A DNA stretch of 33,887 bases, taken from positions 1 to 33,887 of IMG/VR virus record IMGVR_UViG_2740892429_000002, one strand, 5' to 3'. The DNA is from a virus (Duplodnaviria; Heunggongvirae; Uroviricota; Caudoviricetes). The notes below the pieces were generated by a model. That model had not been told where the DNA came from. It searched no databases and saw nothing but the letters and a program-made list of their open reading frames with translations. Within the stretch, counting starts at the first letter, position 1. The number at the start of each line of letters is the position of its first letter. A program made the position numbers and the translations under genes. Of the stretch, positions 265-19,913 are shown piece by piece.

Positions 265-837
265 ATGTTTTGCGAAGAAAAAGTAGCTCAAATGGCTGCA
301 TACCTACTTCTTAAGCGAGGTGGGCGCATGGCATATCTGAAACTGATGAAGCTGCTCTATCTGTCTAACCGCAAGTCGATTTTGAAGCATGGCAGGATGA
401 TCGGCGAAGATAGCCTTTACTCTATGAAATTTGGACCAGTCATGTCGAATACGCTGAACTTGATTCGTGGTAAGGCTGAAGGCATTGGTGACTACTGGTA
501 CAACTTGATAGAGACGAACGGGCATGATGTGTTGTTGCGTTCAGATCCGAGGGAAATGGATGCAGACGAGGTCTTTGATGAGTTGAGCCGTGCAGATATC
601 CGGATTTTAGATGAAATCTATTCTCTGTATGGGCATATGAACCGATTTGATCTCGCAAACATGACGCATTTAGAAAGCGTTTGTCCAGAGTGGCACGATC
701 CCGGCTATTCCCGTAAGCCTATAGATCTGAAAGAAATGCTGATCAGTGAGGGTAAAAGCGAGGATGAGGCTAATCATATAATTGGCAAAATGGAAGAATC
801 TCAGAAACTTAAGGAATTTTCTTTGCAATTATCATGA
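265..837 (+). CDS. DUF4065/Panacea-domain protein (SocA/GepA-like), putative antitoxin
   Basis: 190-aa ORF with GAGG about 8 nt upstream of ATG. N-terminal motif AAYLLLKRGGRMAYLKLMKLLYLSNRKSILKHG...MKFGPVMSNTL matches the DUF4065 (COG3600) signature as I recall it. Stop overlaps the next start (ATGA). Confidence 0.65.
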   Translation: MFCEEKVAQMAAYLLLKRGGRMAYLKLMKLLYLSNRKSILKHGRMIGEDSLYSMKFGPVMSNTLNLIRGKAEGIGDYWYNLIETNGHDVLLRSDPREMDADEVFDELSRADIRILDEIYSLYGHMNRFDLANMTHLESVCPEWHDPGYSRKPIDLKEMLISEGKSEDEANHIIGKMEESQKLKEFSLQLS

Positions 838-1253
838 CGGATTATCAGCCATACAGGAAAGGAACTGTGCTTGCCCCAACAGGGCCATGCAATCATCTTC
901 ATGTGATTTGTAATGATCCTGTTTATTACCCCGTTAACGATTGTTATTGTGTTTTAGTTGTTAATATTTCTAGTATCAAGGATGGTGTCCCCCACGATCC
1001 GTCTTGCGTCTTGAATTCTGGTGATCATCGCTTTATCAAGCATCCAAGTTATGTTGTTTACGCTGAAGCTATAATTTGGCGAGTGGATAACATGGTTAGA
1101 AAGCAGCGATCGGGTGAGATTTCTGTTCATGATGATATGCCAGAAGCTACATTCAATAGAATTCTGGACGGTTTTGATATATCTGATGAAGTTACGCCAA
1201 AGAACCTTAAATTTAAAAATAAATATTGCGTATCATCTATTGATGATGAGTAA
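834..1253 (+). CDS. hypothetical protein, translationally coupled partner of the Panacea-domain gene (putative toxin/effector)
   Basis: 139-aa ORF whose ATG overlaps the upstream stop by 4 nt (ATGA) with no SD of its own. No family recognised; Cys/His-rich N-terminal half (GPCNHLHVICND...CYCVLVV). Confidence 0.5.
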   Translation: MTDYQPYRKGTVLAPTGPCNHLHVICNDPVYYPVNDCYCVLVVNISSIKDGVPHDPSCVLNSGDHRFIKHPSYVVYAEAIIWRVDNMVRKQRSGEISVHDDMPEATFNRILDGFDISDEVTPKNLKFKNKYCVSSIDDE

Positions 1254-7717: not shown

Positions 7718-8410
7718 TTAATTGTGTCGCTTAAGGGTTTGTGACTGACTGATTAAGACCTTTCCAAAGACCATAAACCGGTGTTCGTTTTCGCTGGTAA
7801 TTCCCCATTCGCGGTAAATCTGATTATCAGAAATTACCAGCAGTTTATCAGGTATCATTTGCAGTCGTTTGACGTAAATTTTATCATCAAAACCAAATAC
7901 ATATATACCATCCCCATCAAACTGATTGATACTGATATCAACGAAGATGAGATCTCCTGGCTCAATGGTTGGACACATACTGTCCCCACGAACGTTGATA
8001 ACTTTAATGTGATTTGCTGGTCGTCCACCAAACATCGATACAGCATTATCAGTTCTGTATTCAATGGCATGAATCACATCAATGACATCACCGCCCTGGA
8101 TAAGGCCATTTCCCGCACTGGCACTGACATCCAGCATTTCAATACGGAATACATCCTTCACCTGCGCAACATCCTCACTAATACTGTTTTTACATACAGT
8201 ATTACTTTTGAGGTCTGAGGTAAAGAGATCAGCAATATCAACACCTAAGCTCCTGGCAATATTACTCAGGGCTTGTTCAGTGAATTGTTTCTGCTTACCT
8301 GTTTCGAGGCGCGAGATATTCGCCGCATCCACTCCTATTGCTTCAGCGAGATCGGCGATTTTCATGTTCTTCGCCTGGCGAAGTTGTCTGACTCGATTTC
8401 CTATGTTCAT
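7718..8410 (-). CDS. cI: CI-like prophage repressor (HTH_XRE plus S24 LexA-type peptidase)
   Basis: 230 aa; N-terminal HTH (IADLAEAIGVDAANISRLETG), C-terminal GDSMCPTI serine motif and KR dyad. Divergent from cro across an operator-rich intergenic region. Confidence 0.9.
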   Translation of the reverse strand: MNIGNRVRQLRQAKNMKIADLAEAIGVDAANISRLETGKQKQFTEQALSNIARSLGVDIADLFTSDLKSNTVCKNSISEDVAQVKDVFRIEMLDVSASAGNGLIQGGDVIDVIHAIEYRTDNAVSMFGGRPANHIKVINVRGDSMCPTIEPGDLIFVDISINQFDGDGIYVFGFDDKIYVKRLQMIPDKLLVISDNQIYREWGITSENEHRFMVFGKVLISQSQTLKRHN

Positions 8411-15163: not shown

Positions 15164-15180
15164 TTTTGTGGAGAAAGTTG

Positions 15181-15546
15181 ATGCGTGATATTCAAATGGT
15201 TCTTGAACGTTGGGGGGCATGGGTGGCAAATAATCACGAGGATGTCACCTGGTCGTCTATTGCTGCAGGATTTAAAGGACTAATCCCTTCAAAAGTAAAA
15301 TCCCGCCCGCAATGTTGTGACGATGACGCGATGATCATTTGTGGGTGCATGGCTCGCCTGAAAAAGAACAACAGCGATTTGCACGATTTATTAGTGGATT
15401 ATTATGTAGGTGGTATGACGTTTATGGCGCTTGCCCGTAAACATGGGCGTTCTGATTGCTGGGTTGGGCGTTTATTGCAAAAGGCTGAAGGTGTAGTTGA
15501 TGGCATGTTAATGATGTTAGAAATTGAGCTAGAGATGGATCGTTAG
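15181..15546 (+). CDS. Q: late-gene antiterminator Q
   Basis: ATG after [43 protein letters not shown] matches the Q family of phage 82/DLP12 (QuuD-like) as I recall it. Confidence 0.75.
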
Positions 15547-15588
15547 AAGACCTCTTATTGAGGGGGTAATTGAATCAGTTTAATGTGT

Positions 15589-15620
15589 GGGGAGTCGATT
15601 TATTCTCCCCATTTTATTTA
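15589..15620 (+). terminator. intrinsic terminator downstream of Q
   Basis: GGGGAG-N10-CTCCCC followed by ATTTTATTTA. Confidence 0.5.
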
Positions 15621-15630
15621 ATTAGTTTAC

Positions 15631-16077
15631 TTAAGGTTTTAATTCATCAAGACGTTGTTGGATAGTGTTTTTGCTTGCGTTGTCTGTTATAGCCATTTGT
15701 TGTACTTGCCCCATTGCCATTTGAGTTTCCATCCACATATCGGCCCACACTTTTGTATCGTTATTAACTTGAGCGATAGTAAATCTGACTTTTGATACCG
15801 GGGTTGTTGAATAGGCATTTCCGATTAACATTTGTCCAAAAAAAGCAGAGCCGCCTTCCAGTTCTTTACCACATATAACACTGCTGTTATCCGCGTTGTA
15901 AATTATCAACCCTCTACTATTGCAGTAATTCACAAGGGCATCTTTGACTTTATCTTTTGTCGTATTTTGATAAACCCCCTCAGGTTTTCCTGATTGAGTT
16001 TTCTTTATCAATGGTACGGAAGAAGTACAACCTGAAATGATAGTTGCGCTAAGTAATAGTACAGTCATTTTATTCAT
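15631..16077 (-). CDS. lipoprotein of unknown function (moron, opposite strand)
   Basis: 148 aa with signal peptide and lipobox (LLLSATIISGC). Markedly AT-rich relative to its neighbours; transcribed against the flanking phage genes. Confidence 0.7.
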   Translation of the reverse strand: MNKMTVLLLSATIISGCTSSVPLIKKTQSGKPEGVYQNTTKDKVKDALVNYCNSRGLIIYNADNSSVICGKELEGGSAFFGQMLIGNAYSTTPVSKVRFTIAQVNNDTKVWADMWMETQMAMGQVQQMAITDNASKNTIQQRLDELKP

Positions 16078-16142
16078 GTTTCTTATCCATTGCTAAGGGT
16101 ATACCCACACAATTATTTTTATTGGAGATGAATAATCAACCG

Positions 16143-16170
16143 TTTACAATCGTAAAAAATCAAATATGCT
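16143..16170 (+). promoter_or_regulatory. candidate late promoter (PR'-like)
   Basis: TTTACA, 16-bp spacer, TATGCT, about 50 nt upstream of a terminator, giving a short 6S-like arrangement. Weak evidence. Confidence 0.25.
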
Positions 16171-16200
16171 GTTAAGAGTGGTTACTTCGCCACACAACTT

Positions 16201-16226
16201 AAACCCGCCGCTGAGCGGTTTTTTTT
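16201..16226 (+). terminator. intrinsic terminator (candidate tR')
   Basis: AAACCCGC-CGCTGA-GCGG stem followed by TTTTTTTT. Confidence 0.5.
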
Positions 16227-16324
16227 GTACCTGTAAACTTGGTGCAGTACAGTAAACACGCTGGTGGTCGTGAATACTGACTTTTTATCTTGCTGGCTTT
16301 TTAGACAAGAGTTATTGGTATGTC

Positions 16325-16552
16325 ATGTTAACCAGAAGGGAAAAAGACATGCTAAAACAGCAAGATATGACAGAAACCGCCGCCGCAGTCCTTCATTTCT
16401 TACCTGCTGACAAGTGGGTAACGCCACGCATGATGACGAGAACTACCGGAGTAAGCGAAGCCCGGTGCCAGTTAATACTGACTCAGTTAGTTCTGGCGGG
16501 TCTGGCGAAGGATAACGGCGGGTACGGGAATAAATTCAGACGCTGCCAGTAA
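16325..16552 (+). CDS. small putative winged-helix protein (75 aa)
   Basis: ORF just upstream of the methyltransferase; no strong SD. Helix-rich segment TGVSEARCQLILTQLVLAGL. Confidence 0.4.
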   Translation: MLTRREKDMLKQQDMTETAAAVLHFLPADKWVTPRMMTRTTGVSEARCQLILTQLVLAGLAKDNGGYGNKFRRCQ

Positions 16553-16702
16553 TGGCGGTTTCCTGCTGTGAAAATGGGCGGCTGGTGGGTGTTGGTAGCA
16601 CCTGCCAGCCATTCGCTCATGCTTACTGGTCACAAGCGAACCACGGCCCACTGCTTTAGCGCAAAAGCAGAGTGAGCCTACCAGAGTTACGCTTACTGAT
16701 CC

Positions 16703-17755
16703 ATGAAAAATACTGTAAAAATAAACAGTGTTGATTTAATCAACGCTGATTGCCTGCATTTTATTCAGTCCCTGCCTGATGATTCCATTGACCTGATTGT
16801 TACCGATCCGCCGTACTTCAAGGTGAAACCCAACGGCTGGGACAATCAGTGGAAAGGGGACGAAGATTACCTTAAGTGGCTGGACCACTGTCTGGCCCAG
16901 TTCTGGCGGGTGTTAAAACCTGCCGGAAGCCTTTACCTGTTCTGTGGGCATCGCCTGGCATCTGATATTGAGATCATGATGCGTGAACGTTTCAACGTGC
17001 TTAACCATATCATCTGGGCGAAGCCGTCCGGACGTTGGAATGGGTGTAATAAAGAAAGTCTGCGTGCATATTTTCCTGCCACAGAGCGCGTTCTGTTTGC
17101 TGAACATTACCAGGGGCCATATCGCGGCAAAAGTGACGGCTATGCGGCAAAAGAAAGGGAACTCAAACAGCACATAATGGCACCGCTGATATCGTATTTC
17201 AGGGATGCTCGTGCCGAACTGGGTATAACGACAAAACAAATTGCCGAAGCCACAGGTAAGAAAAATATGGTTTCCCACTGGTTTGGTGCCAGTCAGTGGC
17301 AGTTGCCGAATGAGGCTGACTATCGGAAGTTACAGGCACTGTTTTCCCGTATAGCGGCAGAGAAGTTTCAGGAACAACAACTGGAACAACCACACCACCA
17401 GCTGGTGGCATCTTATGATTCACTGAATCGCAAATATTCTGAATTGCTGGATGAGTTTAAATCTCTCCGGCGCTATTTCTCCGTATCAGTCTCCGTGCCT
17501 TATACCGATGTCTGGATGCATAAACCCGTTCAGTTCTACCCGGGGAAACATCCGTGTGAGAAACCGGCGGATATGCTCAGGCAAATAATCAATGCCAGTA
17601 GTCGACCAGGTGATCTGGTTGCTGATTTTTTTATGGGATCCGGTTCCACAATAAAAGCAGCAATGGCGCTGGGGCGTCGGGCCTTAGGTGTTGAGCTTGA
17701 GTCAGAGCGGTTTAACCAGACAGTGAAAGAGATAAACGAGCTGGTGGGGAAATAA
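16703..17755 (+). CDS. orphan DNA methyltransferase (N6-adenine/N4-cytosine class, DPPY motif)
   Basis: 350 aa. IVTDPPYF catalytic motif near the N-terminus and an FxGSGST AdoMet-binding motif near the C-terminus. No cognate restriction gene nearby. Confidence 0.8.
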
Positions 17756-17759
17756 TCTG

Positions 17760-17788
17760 GTGGCCACGTCAGGTGGCCTTTTTATTTC
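17760..17788 (+). terminator. intrinsic terminator after the methyltransferase
   Basis: GGCCAC-GTCA-GGTGGCC followed by TTTTTATTT. Confidence 0.55.
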
Positions 17789-17822
17789 CATTACACAGCA
17801 CCCGCATCTGCGAGGTGGGGTT

Positions 17823-18038
17823 ATGAAATCCATGGATAAGTTAACAACGGGTGTCGCCTATGGCACCTCAGCAGGTAGTGCCGGGTACTGGTTTTTACAG
17901 TTGCTCGATAAAGTCACGCCCTCACAGTGGGCGGCAATAGGTGTGCTGGGTAGTCTGGTATTTGGCTTGCTGACGTATCTGACAAACCTTTATTTCAAGA
18001 TTAAAGAAGACAAGCGTAAGGCTGCACGGGGAGAGTAA
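17823..18038 (+). CDS. phage-21-type pinholin (class II holin, dual start MKSM)
   Basis: [71 protein letters not shown] closely matches S21 as I recall it. GAGGTGGGG RBS. Confidence 0.85.
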
Positions 18039-18042
18039 TTCA

Positions 18043-18594
18043 ATGACTCAAAACTATGAACTGATTGTGAAAGGGATCCGCAATTTTGAGAATAAAGTTA
18101 CGGTAACTTTAGCGTTACGGGACAAAAAACGCTTTGACGGTGAAATTTTTGACCTGGACATCTCGCTGGACCGTGTTGAAGGTGCCGCGCTGGAGGTTTA
18201 TGAGGCAGCAGCCAGAAGGAGCATCAGACAGGTCTTCCTGGATGTTGCTGCTGGGTTATGTGAAGGGGATGAGCAGTCGCCGGAAAAGCGCCCCGTAATT
18301 TTAGATGCGAAGAATGTGTGGATAACCTACAAAGGAAAGCTACCGGGAAGAATTACTGGTTCTCTGAAGACGCCACCGACGGCATTGCGGTCAGAAAAAG
18401 ATGATATTGAATCGCCCATTGAAAAACTGGAGGGCAGAGTCGCTGATCTGAATAAAAAATTGTCGGTGCTGATCCCTTCTGAAGATGAAAAAAAACGCCG
18501 CGATGAGCAGTTTGCGGCGTTTTACGATTATTGCATTGAGGTTACTCGCAGGAATTTTGTGAAGATTTTTGAGGAGGGTAAATCTCTTCAGTAA
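18043..18594 (+). CDS. hypothetical protein (183 aa) inserted between holin and endolysin
   Basis: ORF starting 5 nt after the holin stop, GGGGAGAG upstream. No recognisable domain; charged, partly coiled-coil C-terminal half. Confidence 0.55.
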   Translation: MTQNYELIVKGIRNFENKVTVTLALRDKKRFDGEIFDLDISLDRVEGAALEVYEAAARRSIRQVFLDVAAGLCEGDEQSPEKRPVILDAKNVWITYKGKLPGRITGSLKTPPTALRSEKDDIESPIEKLEGRVADLNKKLSVLIPSEDEKKRRDEQFAAFYDYCIEVTRRNFVKIFEEGKSLQ

Positions 18595-18915: not shown

Positions 18916-19449
18916 ATGAGCGCAAAAATCAAATATGGCCTGTCGGCTGCCGTTCTGGCACTGATTGCCGTCGGTGCGCCTGCGCCTGACATTCTTGACC
19001 AGTTTCTGAATGAAAAGGAAGGTAACCATACCACGGCATACCGCGATGGTTCCGGCATCTGGACCATCTGTCGTGGTGCCACAATGGTGGATGGTAAGCC
19101 CGTCATACCGGGAATGAAGCTGTCGAAGGAAAAATGCGACCAGGTTAACGCTATTGAACGTGATAAGGCGCTGGCATGGGTGGAGCGCAATATTAAAGTA
19201 CCACTGACCGAACCACAGAAAGCGGGTATAGCGTCATTTTGTCCCTATAACATTGGCCCCGGTAAGTGTTTCCCGTCGACGTTTTATAAGCGGCTGAATG
19301 CCGGTGATCGTAAGGGTGCATGCGAGGCGATTCGCTGGTGGATAAAAGATGGTGGGCGCGATTGCCGCATACGTTCAAATAACTGCTATGGACAGGTTAT
19401 TCGTCGTGACCAAGAAAGCGCATTAGCCTGTTGGGGGATAGATCAGTGA
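18916..19449 (+). CDS. SAR endolysin (T4-lysozyme-like muramidase)
   Basis: N-terminal signal-anchor-release segment ([16 protein letters not shown]) and E-8aa-D-5aa-T catalytic triad ([18 protein letters not shown]). Confidence 0.85.
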
Positions 19450-19913
19450 GCAGAGTCGCCGCGATTATTTATGCTCTGGTTATCTGCATCATCGTCTGCC
19501 TGTCGTGGGCGGTCAATCATTACCGTGATAACGCCATCGCCTACAAAGAACAGCGAGATAAAAAAGTCAGTGAGCTGAAGCAGGCGACCGCCACCATTAC
19601 TGACATGCAGCAGCGCCAGCGTTCTGCTGATGCACTCGATGCTAAATACACGAAGGAGTTAGCTGATGCGAAAGCTGAAAATGATGCTCTTCGGCGCAAG
19701 CTTGATAATGGTGGTCGGGTGTTCGTCAAAGGAAAATGCCCTGTGCCATCCTCAGCCGAAACCTCCAGCGCCTCCGGCATGGGCAATGATGCCACCGTCG
19801 AACTCTCTCCAGTTGCTGGACGAAACGTTCTCGGTATCCGGGACGGAATCATCAGCGACCAAACAGCACTGAGAGCGCTTCAGGAATACATCAGGACGCA
19901 ATGCCTTCGATGA
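19446..19913 (+). CDS. Rz: i-spanin Rz
   Basis: GTG start overlapping the endolysin stop. N-terminal TM segment and a sequence close to lambda Rz ([26 protein letters not shown]...[17 protein letters not shown]). Confidence 0.85.
19666..19872 (+). CDS. Rz1: o-spanin Rz1 (embedded lipoprotein)
   Basis: 68-aa ORF in the +1 frame inside Rz; lipobox LIMVVGC, proline-rich PPAPPAW; AAGGAG RBS. Confidence 0.8.

Follow-up and report, generated by a model that had tools for sequence, protein, structure and literature searches.

In the 33.9-kb stretch of viral DNA analysed here (the window), a single-gene moron cassette encoding a 148-residue lipoprotein is inserted on the reverse strand between the antiterminator gene Q and a candidate late promoter pR’. 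We have high confidence in this cassette anatomy and in the identity of the product as a lipoprotein. By analogy with other slot cargo and with known phage lipoproteins, superinfection exclusion or another form of envelope-level phage defence is put forward as its role, a tentative reading that is possible rather than probable. Prophage morons are a main route to envelope changes, virulence traits and phage resistance in E. coli. About 3% of complete E. coli genomes, that of the model uropathogen UTI89 among them, carry the moron described here, as do plaque-forming phages; its product belongs to a sizeable lipoprotein family without described function, and it marks a sharply delimited cargo slot.

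Anatomy of the cassette and of the late control region

The features of the region are listed in Table 1. On the left, the Q gene shares 82.6% DNA identity with DLP12 quuD up to position 15540; more generally, homology to DLP12, 434, Perceval and 569R4 ends at about 15540 and restarts at 16142-16171. The cargo enclosed by these breaks has two of the marks of a moron: its base composition deviates (36.6% GC versus about 50% in the flanks), and it places an extra gene between otherwise adjacent genes, the distance from Q to the pR’ core being 625 bp here versus 96-105 bp in five relatives in which the slot is empty.

The first-pass annotation had described 15547-16324 as an AT-rich moron with a reverse-strand, 148-residue lipoprotein bearing the lipobox ISGC. 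The composition is as it claimed: GC is 37.4% over 15547-16324 and 37.6% over the lipoprotein ORF versus 50.3% for the whole window, and no other 778-bp stretch of the window has a lower GC content (mean 50.4%, sd 4.2). The ORF (15631-16077, reverse strand) and its signal peptide are likewise present, in a self-contained AT-rich cassette that lies between Q and the late genes and is transcribed against the phage operons. The extent needed correction, as only 15547-16141 is cargo, while 16142-16324 belongs to a conserved late region shared with phages that do not carry the lipoprotein.

Table 1. Features of the Q-to-late-gene region (positions in the window)
Feature	Position	Strand	Evidence
Q antiterminator gene, left border of slot	15166-15546	+	PF06530 Phage_antitermQ E=2.1e-51; phrog_79
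Variable cargo (moron cassette), 595 bp, 36.6% GC	15547-16141	-	homology breaks on both sides
Hairpin GGGGAG-N10-CUCCCC then AUUUUAUUU, terminator-like, just after Q and within cargo	15589-15619	+	terminator scan; function putative
Lipoprotein gene, 148 aa	15631-16077	-	ORF call and full-length phrog_3152 match
Signal peptide and lipobox, MNKMTVLLLSATI-ISG↓C	16027-16077	-	translation
Candidate sigma-70 promoter of lipoprotein gene, TTGATT-16-AATAAT	16112-16139	-	consensus scan, 9/12 matches
Candidate late promoter pR’, TTTACA-16-TATGCT	16143-16170	+	consensus scan
pR’ leader/tR’-like module: initial transcribed region and intrinsic terminator	16171-16228	+	conservation and terminator scan
First late-operon genes past tR’: 75-aa ORF (phrog_331), type II-like DNA methyltransferase	16325-17755	+	

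The right border of the cassette is formed by late control sequences. The -35 element, the spacer ‘CGTAAAAAA’ and the -10 element of the candidate pR’ are all conserved in DLP12 upstream of essD, and a -10-like hexamer (TAnnnT; CAGTAT in L048) abuts the pR’ core in every relative examined. A 39-nt core is identical, or differs at two positions, in UTI89, PhiR40_1, 569R4, DLP12, 434, Perceval and ev243, all of which have this Q type. Phage Ayreon, which has another Q type, lacks the 39-nt core yet shares the sequence from the terminator onward, and ‘terminator’ is annotated there; in the window, the stem of the intrinsic terminator is at 16207-16219 and is followed by a U-run. Judged by this conservation, 16143-16228 is a block of late promoter, leader and terminator that goes together with this Q type; the conserved core after pR’ may act as a qut/pause site. 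With the late promoter placed here, the lipoprotein gene lies upstream of pR’ and is divergent from it. Downstream, the plus strand carries the 75-aa ORF, the DNA methyltransferase, a holin, an endolysin and Rz, the Rz-type spanin gene being at 19431-19913.

The candidate promoter of the lipoprotein gene belongs to the cargo; it precedes the ATG by about 35 nt, stands back-to-back with pR’ and, from its sequence, may be the one used. Ahead of the start codon is a weak Shine-Dalgarno sequence (GGAUAAGAAAC-AUG). The divergent promoter region contains no Fur, LexA or CRP box, and Rfam gave no match on 15300-16800. The hairpin just after Q folds with -24.4 kcal/mol (z=-2.9) on the plus strand and -15.8 kcal/mol (z=-2.2) on the minus strand; it is also 3’ of the lipoprotein ORF on the minus strand, there without a U-run, and is a weak candidate for the terminator of that gene.

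The lipoprotein and its family

The lipobox I-S-G-C occupies residues 14-17 (positions 16038-16027), is preceded by a typical n/h-region, MNKMTVLLLSATII, and agrees with the pattern [LVI][ASTVI][GAS]C after an N-terminal signal peptide. Cys17 is predicted to be the acylated residue, and counting from it the mature lipoprotein has about 132 residues. Thr at +2 would, by the +2 rule, direct sorting to the outer membrane by Lol; among the 118 relatives with a recognisable lipobox, 108 have A, T, V or S at this position and none has Asp. The lipobox cysteine is at least 90% conserved across the family and, in an alignment of 46 diverse relatives, two further cysteines are conserved with it; a Cys52-Cys69 disulfide is probable. 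Two motifs, GNxYSTTP and W-x-ETQM-x-x-GQ, are strongly conserved, the most conserved residues forming polar surface motifs and not the lining of a hydrophobic pocket. The C-terminus is polar (...NTIQQRLDELKP). Compared with its relatives, the lipoprotein ORF has a pS of 0.72-0.87, which is saturated, versus a pN of 0.19-0.30. By this measure the ORF is under strong purifying selection, and saturated synonymous sites together with a low pN indicate that it is a real gene.

The protein had initially been said to match no recognised family. This holds for curated families, while phrog_3152 is matched over the full length (E=5.5e-104, residues 1-148 versus profile positions 1-148 of 148), its annotation being ‘unknown function’. 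In Pfam, NCBIfam, PADLOC and PDB sequences, neither the protein by itself nor a profile of 46 sequences found anything except the lipoprotein signal, and none of the defence-protein models of PADLOC-DB 2.0 matched at E≤0.1. Structure prediction gives a generic alpha/beta fold, for which the best Foldseek hit had an E of 1.7e-3, with TM-scores of at most 0.44 on the query and identities of 6-13%. Our literature search found no paper on the lipoprotein or on its neighbouring pR’ sequence. The orf6 and orf10 genes of an APEC prophage (PMC7724020) appear to be other genes, encoding a tail fibre and a conserved hypothetical protein, and are set apart here by description only. A u-spanin reading is ruled out, as the protein has no C-terminal transmembrane segment; nor is the gene placed as an o-spanin gene would be. 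Genes of that kind encode small lipoproteins of about 60 residues and are paired with, and often embedded in, the i-spanin gene Rz, whereas the gene here is outside and opposite to the lysis cassette, with a separate Rz-type spanin gene present.

Of 5426 complete E. coli genomes, 185 have a copy with 98-99% identity and an intact ORF. Among these carriers are the uropathogens UTI89 (WP_001033965.1, ‘hypothetical protein’) and NU14, as well as numerous isolates from humans and animals; others come from river water, food and the environment, i.e. the gene is not confined to pathogens. A near-identical gene is present in the inducible, plaque-forming phages PhiR40_1 and PhiR55_1, besides which tblastn of phage records detected no homologue, and a Lom gene is part of the same prophage (UTI89, PhiR40_1). 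The gene is essentially absent from plasmids.

The wider family comprises about 800 clusters at 50% identity, has no Pfam or NCBIfam model, and keeps the lipobox, the two cysteines and the two motifs across hundreds of clusters. A profile scan of genome contigs with a narrower alignment located homologues in only 13 species. Homologues are single-gene AT-rich cargo of lambda-like, P1-like and Mu-like prophages. The lambda-like homologues are found in tail modules, in the K/I gap in Salmonella, Jejubacter and Morganella and in the H/M gap in Citrobacter; the Haemophilus homologue follows the tape-measure gene, with Rha and Bro genes on either side, and the Phytobacter homologue is in the nin region. 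The P1-like element has DarA/DdrB as neighbours and the Mu-like prophage DUF3164. Prophages of Photorhabdus, Xenorhabdus, Symbiopectobacterium, Phytobacter and Halomonas, hosts that are insect-, nematode- or plant-associated or marine, also carry homologues. In other enterobacterial prophages the GC content of the homologue is 8-15 points below that of its flanks. No conserved partner gene accompanies the homologues, the only common neighbour being tail protein I. Members also occur in non-phage contexts and, in other proteobacteria, as fusions with PDZ or TPR domains, a range that suggests that the ancestral role in the envelope was a housekeeping one.

We compared the C-termini of J among carriers and found no coupling of the lipoprotein gene to a receptor-binding type. 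The J receptor-binding end of the E. coli carriers is a common type, present in 260 phage records of which two have the lipoprotein gene, and carriers in other genera have J ends unrelated to those of the E. coli carriers. Since the common J type is mostly without the gene and the J ends elsewhere are unrelated, there is no sign of coupling to a single receptor.

Cargo of the Q-to-pR’ slot

The survey of the slot covered 94 IMG/VR contigs that combine this Q type with the pR’ core. The slot is filled in 89 of them and empty in 5; in 84 of the filled slots the reverse strand bears the largest cargo ORF, and cargo GC averages 38% versus 49.5% in the flanks. The Q-to-pR’ slot is a cargo hotspot. 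An NmpC-type porin is the cargo in 42 contigs. Elsewhere the slot holds Kiwa (KwaB, E=2e-150, with a transmembrane partner), PDC-S20 (E=2e-176), PDC-M68A (HNH-like, E=7.5e-27), several two-gene cassettes of a transmembrane and a cytosolic protein, an unrelated lipoprotein (L083) and the lipocalin lipoprotein Blc (ev087). Such cargo can be expressed in lysogens: by RNA-seq of LF82, NmpC of prophage Perceval is 10-fold over the prophage background (PMC9928086).

As related phages fill the slot with porins and anti-phage defence systems, the lipoprotein probably alters the host envelope. The location is circumstantial evidence, because porins, which may bring a nutritional or virulence-related benefit, occupy the slot as well. 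Since Kiwa, PDC-S20, PDC-M68A, porins and many cassettes without annotation share this site between Q and the pR’ -35, new genes of defence or envelope conversion could be sought there.

Possible functions and likeness to known systems

In the mechanism that we tentatively propose, the cassette, inserted as a single-gene moron between the Q stop codon and the pR’ -35, would be transcribed from its own candidate promoter, divergent from pR’. Such a promoter would need neither Q nor the late operon, and the gene could be expressed in the lysogen. After export by Sec and lipidation at Cys17, the product, which has no Asp at +2, would reach the inner leaflet of the outer membrane through Lol. At that site its compact alpha/beta domain of about 130 residues, with the one probable disulfide, would bind a conserved envelope component via the two surface motifs, and the lysogen would most likely be protected at the stage at which incoming phages adsorb or deliver their DNA. 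The likely target would be that conserved component and not the receptor of the carrier phage itself. Cor and Llp, annotated in HK022 and T5, are precedents for exclusion by a lipoprotein. Several observations stand against it: neither PADLOC nor the comparisons with Cor, Llp and Bor revealed homology of the protein to a known exclusion or defence protein, the family has non-phage members, the gene shows no sign of coupling to a single receptor, the same slot also holds porins, and the candidate promoter and terminator are consensus matches. Overall, that the lipoprotein works like an exclusion lipoprotein is plausible, and the evidence from the slot and the neighbourhood modestly strengthens this view. 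A bolder form of the proposal, which we think rather doubtful, is that the lipoprotein founds a new widespread family of mobile-element outer-membrane lipoproteins that, as one-gene cassettes in Gammaproteobacteria prophages, would give broad, receptor-independent protection from phage entry, with the GNxYSTTP and ETQM motifs as the contact to a conserved envelope component. If true, the mechanism would be distinct from receptor plugging by Cor and Llp.

Four other explanations were weighed. Firstly, the lipoprotein could be a conversion factor for host fitness or virulence that aids lysogen survival through serum or complement resistance, as Bor/Iss do, or through tolerance of stress or antimicrobial peptides. 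This is unlikely in our view, although the 185 E. coli carrier genomes include UTI89, NU14 and many human and animal isolates, the gene appears from its sequence to be autonomous and Q-independent, and Bor and Lom, which have such roles, are common in lambda-like prophages, Lom even in the same prophage (UTI89, PhiR40_1). The lipoprotein has no homology to Bor/Iss, its carriers include river-water, food and environmental isolates, and the family extends to insect-, nematode- and plant-associated and marine bacteria, where serum resistance is irrelevant. Secondly, a helix-grip-like domain tethered to the outer membrane could bind lipids or other hydrophobic ligands and tune outer-membrane homeostasis or permeability, the same functional area as that of other cargo near Q (the lipocalin Blc, the lipid A deacylase LpxR and porins). 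We consider this improbable: the structural likeness is as generic as the Foldseek values above, there is no sequence relation to BamC, and conservation is highest in polar surface motifs instead of the lining of a pocket.

Thirdly, a periplasmic inhibitor or immunity protein could act against an envelope attack factor such as a phage-tail muralytic enzyme, a bacteriocin or a type VI amidase/glycosidase effector. The predicted periplasm-facing position of the lipoprotein, the single-gene cassette without a partner, the carriage on many kinds of mobile element, which is typical of orphan immunity genes, and the strong conservation of the polar motifs over distant hosts, which suggests one conserved molecular target, would all agree with this. 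It is nevertheless quite improbable, as searches of Pfam, PDB and PADLOC linked the protein to no known lysozyme inhibitor or immunity family, and no cognate toxin gene is near the homologues in any context examined. Lastly, H-NS typically silences AT-rich DNA, and an ORF in such DNA with a weak Shine-Dalgarno and a promoter of only 9/12 consensus matches could be silent or decaying and without function in the lysogen, yet this is scarcely credible for a gene that is under strong purifying selection over saturated synonymous divergence, intact at 98-99% identity in 185 genomes, conserved in its lipobox, two cysteines and two motifs over hundreds of clusters, and captured repeatedly and independently in different prophage slots.

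Exclusion remains our preferred, if tentative, reading, and its closest parallels are Cor (HK022, phi80, N15) and Llp (T5). These too are phage-encoded single-gene outer-membrane lipoproteins independent of virion genes (the location being predicted for the protein described here), and cor and llp, like the homologues of the lipoprotein gene, often adjoin tail or receptor-binding genes. FhuA, which Cor and Llp block, is the receptor that their own phage uses, whereas the lipoprotein carriers show no receptor link and include P1-like and Mu-like elements. The first-pass suggestion that the protein is Cor/Llp-like or Bor-like fails as a statement of family membership. Aligned by hhalign, the family profile and HK022 Cor match over residues 1-32 only (signal peptide and linker), and T5 Llp matches over 21 columns of signal peptide; the precursors of Cor and Llp have 77 residues versus 148 here, the mature domain here is about twice theirs, and the predicted fold is different. 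For Bor/Iss there is no PF06291 match at E≤0.1, and hhalign covers only the first 34 columns, the signal peptide. Bor of lambda resembles the lipoprotein gene in setting, being a reverse-strand, AT-rich lipoprotein moron by the lysis genes of a lambdoid phage; it sits downstream of Rz, whereas the gene described here is between Q and pR’.

Helix-grip/KA1-like lipoprotein domains (the BamC domains, Flpp3/DUF3568) are a further likeness, which is generic and uninformative on function; Pfam was negative for them, and BamC obtained an hhalign probability of 3%, with a match to the signal peptide only. Lpp021 and Lpp010 of the mEpimmI coliphages are lipoproteins encoded in structural-gene clusters that exclude OmpA- or LamB-using phages (PMC11893012), an arrangement shared with most homologues of the lipoprotein gene. 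They belong to different families, to judge from tblastn matching only PhiR40_1 and PhiR55_1 in a phage collection that may not include their genomes. A study of the E. coli pangenome has a lipoprotein among its validated single-gene defence systems (PMC9519451).

As to the slot, the first-pass annotation had called it the classic moron site of both stx and nmpC, which is right for nmpC of DLP12 in place and orientation and wrong for stx. Like the lipoprotein gene, stx of the Stx phages is an accessory gene that lambdoid phages carry between Q and the lysis genes. It is located on the late strand downstream of pR’/tR’, co-oriented with the late operon and hence Q-dependent, whereas the lipoprotein gene is on the opposite strand and upstream of the pR’ -35; the position equivalent to that of stx is occupied here by the 75-aa ORF and the DNA methyltransferase. 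The nmpC/lc porin morons of DLP12, PA-2, 434 and Perceval differ in their cargo, about 1.7 kb versus 0.6 kb, and in their product, a 16-stranded porin of about 360 residues unrelated in sequence to the lipoprotein. They occupy the identical place in the same orientation, on the reverse strand between a Q of this type and the pR’ core, and, as with the lipoprotein cassette, they are GC-poor, have their own expression signals and encode an outer-membrane product, the expression signals of the lipoprotein cassette being candidates and the outer-membrane location of its product being predicted.

The lipoprotein gene and the borders of its cargo

The window is a lambda-like prophage with an immunity region and replication, nin, Q, lysis, terminase, head and tail genes, and it is closely related to the prophage adjoining prfC in uropathogenic E. 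coli UTI89 and to the inducible ECOR phages PhiR40_1 and PhiR55_1. The first-pass annotation had described an AT-rich segment with a reverse-strand lipoprotein gene after Q, and this was confirmed: the gene upstream of the cargo is a Q antiterminator (Pfam PF06530, E=2e-51), 15547-16324 has 37.4% GC and is the lowest-GC 778-bp stretch of the 33.9-kb window (mean 50.4%, sd 4.2), and the ORF begins with a standard lipoprotein signal, MNKMTVLLLSATIISG followed by C, with Cys17 as predicted acylation site. The protein matches PHROG 3152 (unknown function) over its full length (E=5.5e-104). Copies 98-99% identical to it are carried by 185 of 5426 complete E. coli genomes, in every case chromosomally and between the same flanks, and are annotated as ‘hypothetical protein’ (UTI89 WP_001033965.1). 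Homologues from Salmonella, Jejubacter, Citrobacter, Phytobacter and Enterobacter are 58-72% identical in amino-acid sequence, with pS saturated (0.72-0.87) and pN low (0.19-0.30). Judged from these substitution rates, the ORF is a real gene under selection.

Features of the lipoprotein locus and of other parts of the window
Feature	Position	Strand	Remarks
Two-gene pair at prophage end	265-1253	+	190-aa Panacea-domain protein overlapping 139-aa partner
LexA-box-like match, 17 of 20	about 8182-8201		Immunity region; inside or next to repressor gene 7718-8410 (-)
Hairpin then AUUUUAUUU	15589-15619	+	Directly after Q, within cargo
Lipoprotein ORF	15631..16077	-	148 aa
Candidate lipoprotein promoter TTGATT-16-AATAAT	16139-16112	-	Consensus scan
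Sigma-70-like promoter TTTACA-16-TATGCT	16143-16170	+	First element of shared right-hand block
39-nt initial transcribed region		+	Shared right-hand block; core compared across phages
GC-rich hairpin and T-run	16207-16228	+	Terminator scan; annotated ‘terminator’ in phage Ayreon
75-aa ORF	16325-16552	+	phrog_331 (unknown function); first ORF past terminator
LexA-box-like TACTGTAAAAATAAACAGTG (CTGT-N8-ACAG), 16 of 20 to consensus	16711-16730		Inside codons 3-9 of DNA methyltransferase gene
183-aa ORF	18043-18594	+	Between holin (17760-18038) and endolysin (18916-19449)

Comparison with relatives confined the variable part of the locus to 15547-16141. Homology to DLP12 quuD ends at 15540, six bases short of the Q stop, and restarts on the right at 16142 in DLP12 and at about 16151-16171 in phage 569R4. 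Of the moron originally drawn at 15547-16324, the part up to 16141 is thus cargo, and the remainder is a right-hand block shared among phages. The 39-nt core of this block is identical or carries 2 differences in UTI89, PhiR40_1, 569R4, DLP12, 434, Perceval and ev243, i.e. in all phages examined with this Q type; Ayreon, which has a different Q, is devoid of the core, its sequence agreeing with the others from the terminator on. Because the core co-varies with Q, as expected of such a module, we infer that the block is a pR’/qut/tR’ module; our literature search found no paper giving the pR’ core sequence. The lipoprotein gene would therefore lie upstream of pR’ and point away from it, its candidate promoter standing back-to-back with the pR’ -35 across a gap of three bases. 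The hairpin after Q could halt Q read-through before it enters the lipoprotein gene in antisense; on the - strand this hairpin has no U-run, so the gene’s own terminator appears weak or undefined. The moron had been assigned to a slot used by both stx and nmpC. The stx-equivalent position lies past tR’ on the late strand, and in the window it is filled by the 75-aa ORF and a DNA methyltransferase; only the nmpC assignment, upstream of and divergent from pR’, is retained.

Several other features were observed. The predicted pR’ transcript (16171-16228, +) would run for only about 50 nt before the terminator stops it, yielding a short leader whose position can be compared with that of lambda 6S RNA; the leader region has no Rfam match. 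A CG(T/C)AAAAA motif in the spacer between -35 and -10, which relatives retain even if their -35 has diverged, may be the Q-binding element. The 75-aa ORF gives a weak winged-helix/MarR-like signal (E=0.058), and many lambdoid phages, some with a different Q, have kept it in front of the methyltransferase gene. The N-terminal part of the 183-aa ORF belongs to the DUF1327/YdfR family (PF07041, E=3e-40; phrog_2091 over the full length) and about 70 aa are added to it at the C-terminus, local GC being about 44-45%; no PADLOC match was found for this ORF, and at its position UTI89 has nothing and PhiR40_1 a shorter YdfR-family gene. At the prophage end, the pair of a Panacea-domain (SocA-like antitoxin) protein (PF13274, E=2e-18) and its partner (phrog_19071) forms the window’s second most AT-rich part (39% GC) and resembles a toxin-antitoxin or defence pair; at the equivalent end of PhiR40_1, YafM/YafO are annotated.

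The Q-to-pR’ slot as a site of cargo

IMG/VR was scanned for the pR’ core, which was found in at least 120 contigs; the census sample comprised the 94 contigs among the matches listed with a Q of the same family upstream in the DNA examined. In this sample, the slot was empty (Q to core 96-105 bp) in 5 contigs, and held an NmpC-type porin in 42, a 569R4-type two-gene cassette in 4, the window’s lipoprotein in 2 and other cargo of 0.7-2.3 kb in 41. Of the 89 filled slots among these listed matches, 84 have their largest ORF on the reverse strand; mean GC is 38% for the cargo and 49.5% for the flanks. The porin gene of DLP12, 434, Perceval and ev243 is a reverse-strand one of NmpC/OmpD type, while the 569R4 cassette encodes a membrane and a cytosolic protein (31% GC). 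Lambda_ev087 has a reverse-strand Blc lipocalin lipoprotein gene (lipobox LIAC) directly after Q; a search of the examined sequence of this phage did not recover the pR’ core. Among ten representative proteins of the other cargo, PADLOC identified KwaB of Kiwa with an adjoining membrane partner (locus L049, E=2e-150), PDC-S20 (L114, E=2e-176) and the HNH-like PDC-M68A (L075, E=7.5e-27), as well as a weak NYN-nuclease match. Several gene pairs of unknown type, encoding a small membrane and a roughly 310-aa cytosolic protein, are also part of the other cargo, and locus L083 holds a different 159-aa lipoprotein, unrelated to the window’s. Defence and envelope genes alike are found in this slot, which is a compact cargo hotspot. 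Cargo placed here can be expressed from the prophage, since Perceval NmpC was 10-fold over prophage background in LF82 RNA-seq (PMC9928086).

Slot cargo was noted in further related IMG/VR contigs (L151, L055, L108), and nearly all of it in related contigs is reverse-strand and of 31-42% GC. In phage 434B (L035, 1286-2452), a lambda-Q N-terminal fragment is followed by a reverse-strand gene for an LpxR-like outer-membrane lipid A deacylase, upstream of the functional Q and nmpC slot: a second reverse-strand outer-membrane cargo, beside a Q remnant.

The protein family and its genomic settings

A first search gave 31 close relatives, all from Enterobacterales and unnamed or called ‘lipoprotein’; the ‘VirB7’ label on one UniRef relative probably reflects the lipid-attachment motif only. 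An exhaustive profile search extended the family to 823 clusters at E<=1e-3 (408 at E<=1e-10), and searches of Pfam, NCBIfam, PADLOC and PDB sequences gave no match to the domain. The family lipobox has Asp at +2 in none of 118 members, and the conserved motifs are SG(K/R)PE, GNxYSTTP and W-x-ETQM-x-x-GQ. Two cysteines, C52 and C69, are invariant and probably form a disulfide, as would suit a protein located in the periplasm. AlphaFold2, run on a 21-sequence alignment, gave a confident model (pLDDT 85, pTM 0.76) with beta-alpha-beta-beta-alpha-beta-beta-beta-alpha topology. C-terminal domains of PDZ, TPR (YfiO/TPR_6-like) or SHOCT type occur in some distant members (family proteins P0092, P0129, P0174, P0086 and P0101; locus L027, 5740-6699), and P0037 and P0040 have at the C-terminus a Cys-rich module (…GPGFETY…C…GD…RCEFGNCR), for which Pfam gave no match.

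Homologues lie between tail genes K and I in lambda-like prophages of Salmonella, Jejubacter and Morganella, between tape-measure gene H and M in Citrobacter, after the tape-measure gene with flanking Rha and Bro genes in Haemophilus, in the nin region in Phytobacter, beside DarA and DdrB in a P1-like element of Enterobacter, beside DUF3164 in a Mu-like prophage of Halomonas, and beside integrase and resolvase, or primase, on metagenomic contigs; the PDZ-fused form of Sphingosinicella and Erythrobacter looks chromosomal or plasmid-borne. In enterobacterial prophages, gene GC is 8-15 points under the flanks. Because the settings vary and no conserved partner gene was found beside the homologues, the gene is a one-gene cassette captured repeatedly in different prophage slots.

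Proposed function and comparison with known lipoproteins

The lipoprotein is a new, uncharacterised family member in an element of a well-known kind, the prophage moron encoding an envelope lipoprotein. The cassette, lipoprotein signals, slot and selection are directly supported; beyond these, a promoter of its own would drive the gene in the lysogen, and the product would be anchored in the outer membrane, face the periplasm and bind a conserved envelope component. Tentatively, and as the function with the most support, we propose that it shields the lysogen when incoming phages adsorb or bring in their DNA. Four observations argue for this: firstly, known defence systems and outer-membrane proteins abound in the slot; secondly, homologues adjoin tail-tip/tape-measure genes, a position shared with exclusion lipoproteins proven by experiment (PMC11893012); thirdly, many kinds of temperate phage carry the gene; and fourthly, a lipoprotein is among validated single-gene E. 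coli defence systems (PMC9519451). A host-fitness or virulence factor is an unlikely reading of the same gene, a lipid- or ligand-binding homeostasis protein somewhat more so, and a periplasmic inhibitor or immunity protein is improbable. A silent ORF, given the selection, is very improbable.

The ends of J were compared to see whether the protein might be a plug coupled to the receptor of its own phage. The C-terminal 250 aa of J are 81-88% identical among UTI89, PhiR40_1 and PhiR55_1, and this J-end type is common (260 phage records, the lipoprotein in only two). A different J end is common to the Salmonella, Jejubacter and Morganella carriers, and a third is found in the Citrobacter carrier, yet the lipoproteins of these carriers are 63-72% identical to the window’s. 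P1-like and Mu-like elements carry the gene as well. Because J ends vary, carriers are diverse and polar motifs are deeply conserved, these comparisons point to a conserved envelope component, rather than one variable receptor, as the putative target.

The finding is of moderate interest, mainly for a family that is large, mobile and unstudied, for a gene that both UTI89 and culturable phages carry, and for a slot that concentrates defence and envelope cargo. The lipoprotein was not mentioned in the literature retrieved by our search. Cor/Llp-like or Bor-like roles had been mentioned initially; kinship with these families did not survive, since in profile comparisons with HK022 Cor, T5 Llp and lambda Bor the alignment covers only the signal peptide and a few residues past the Cys. 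The profile comparison with E. coli BamC gave a probability of 3%, and membership in the Llp, Cor, Bor or BamC families was rejected on these comparisons. The genes for the Cor and Llp exclusion lipoproteins too lie beside tail-tip/tape-measure genes, as the homologues do here.
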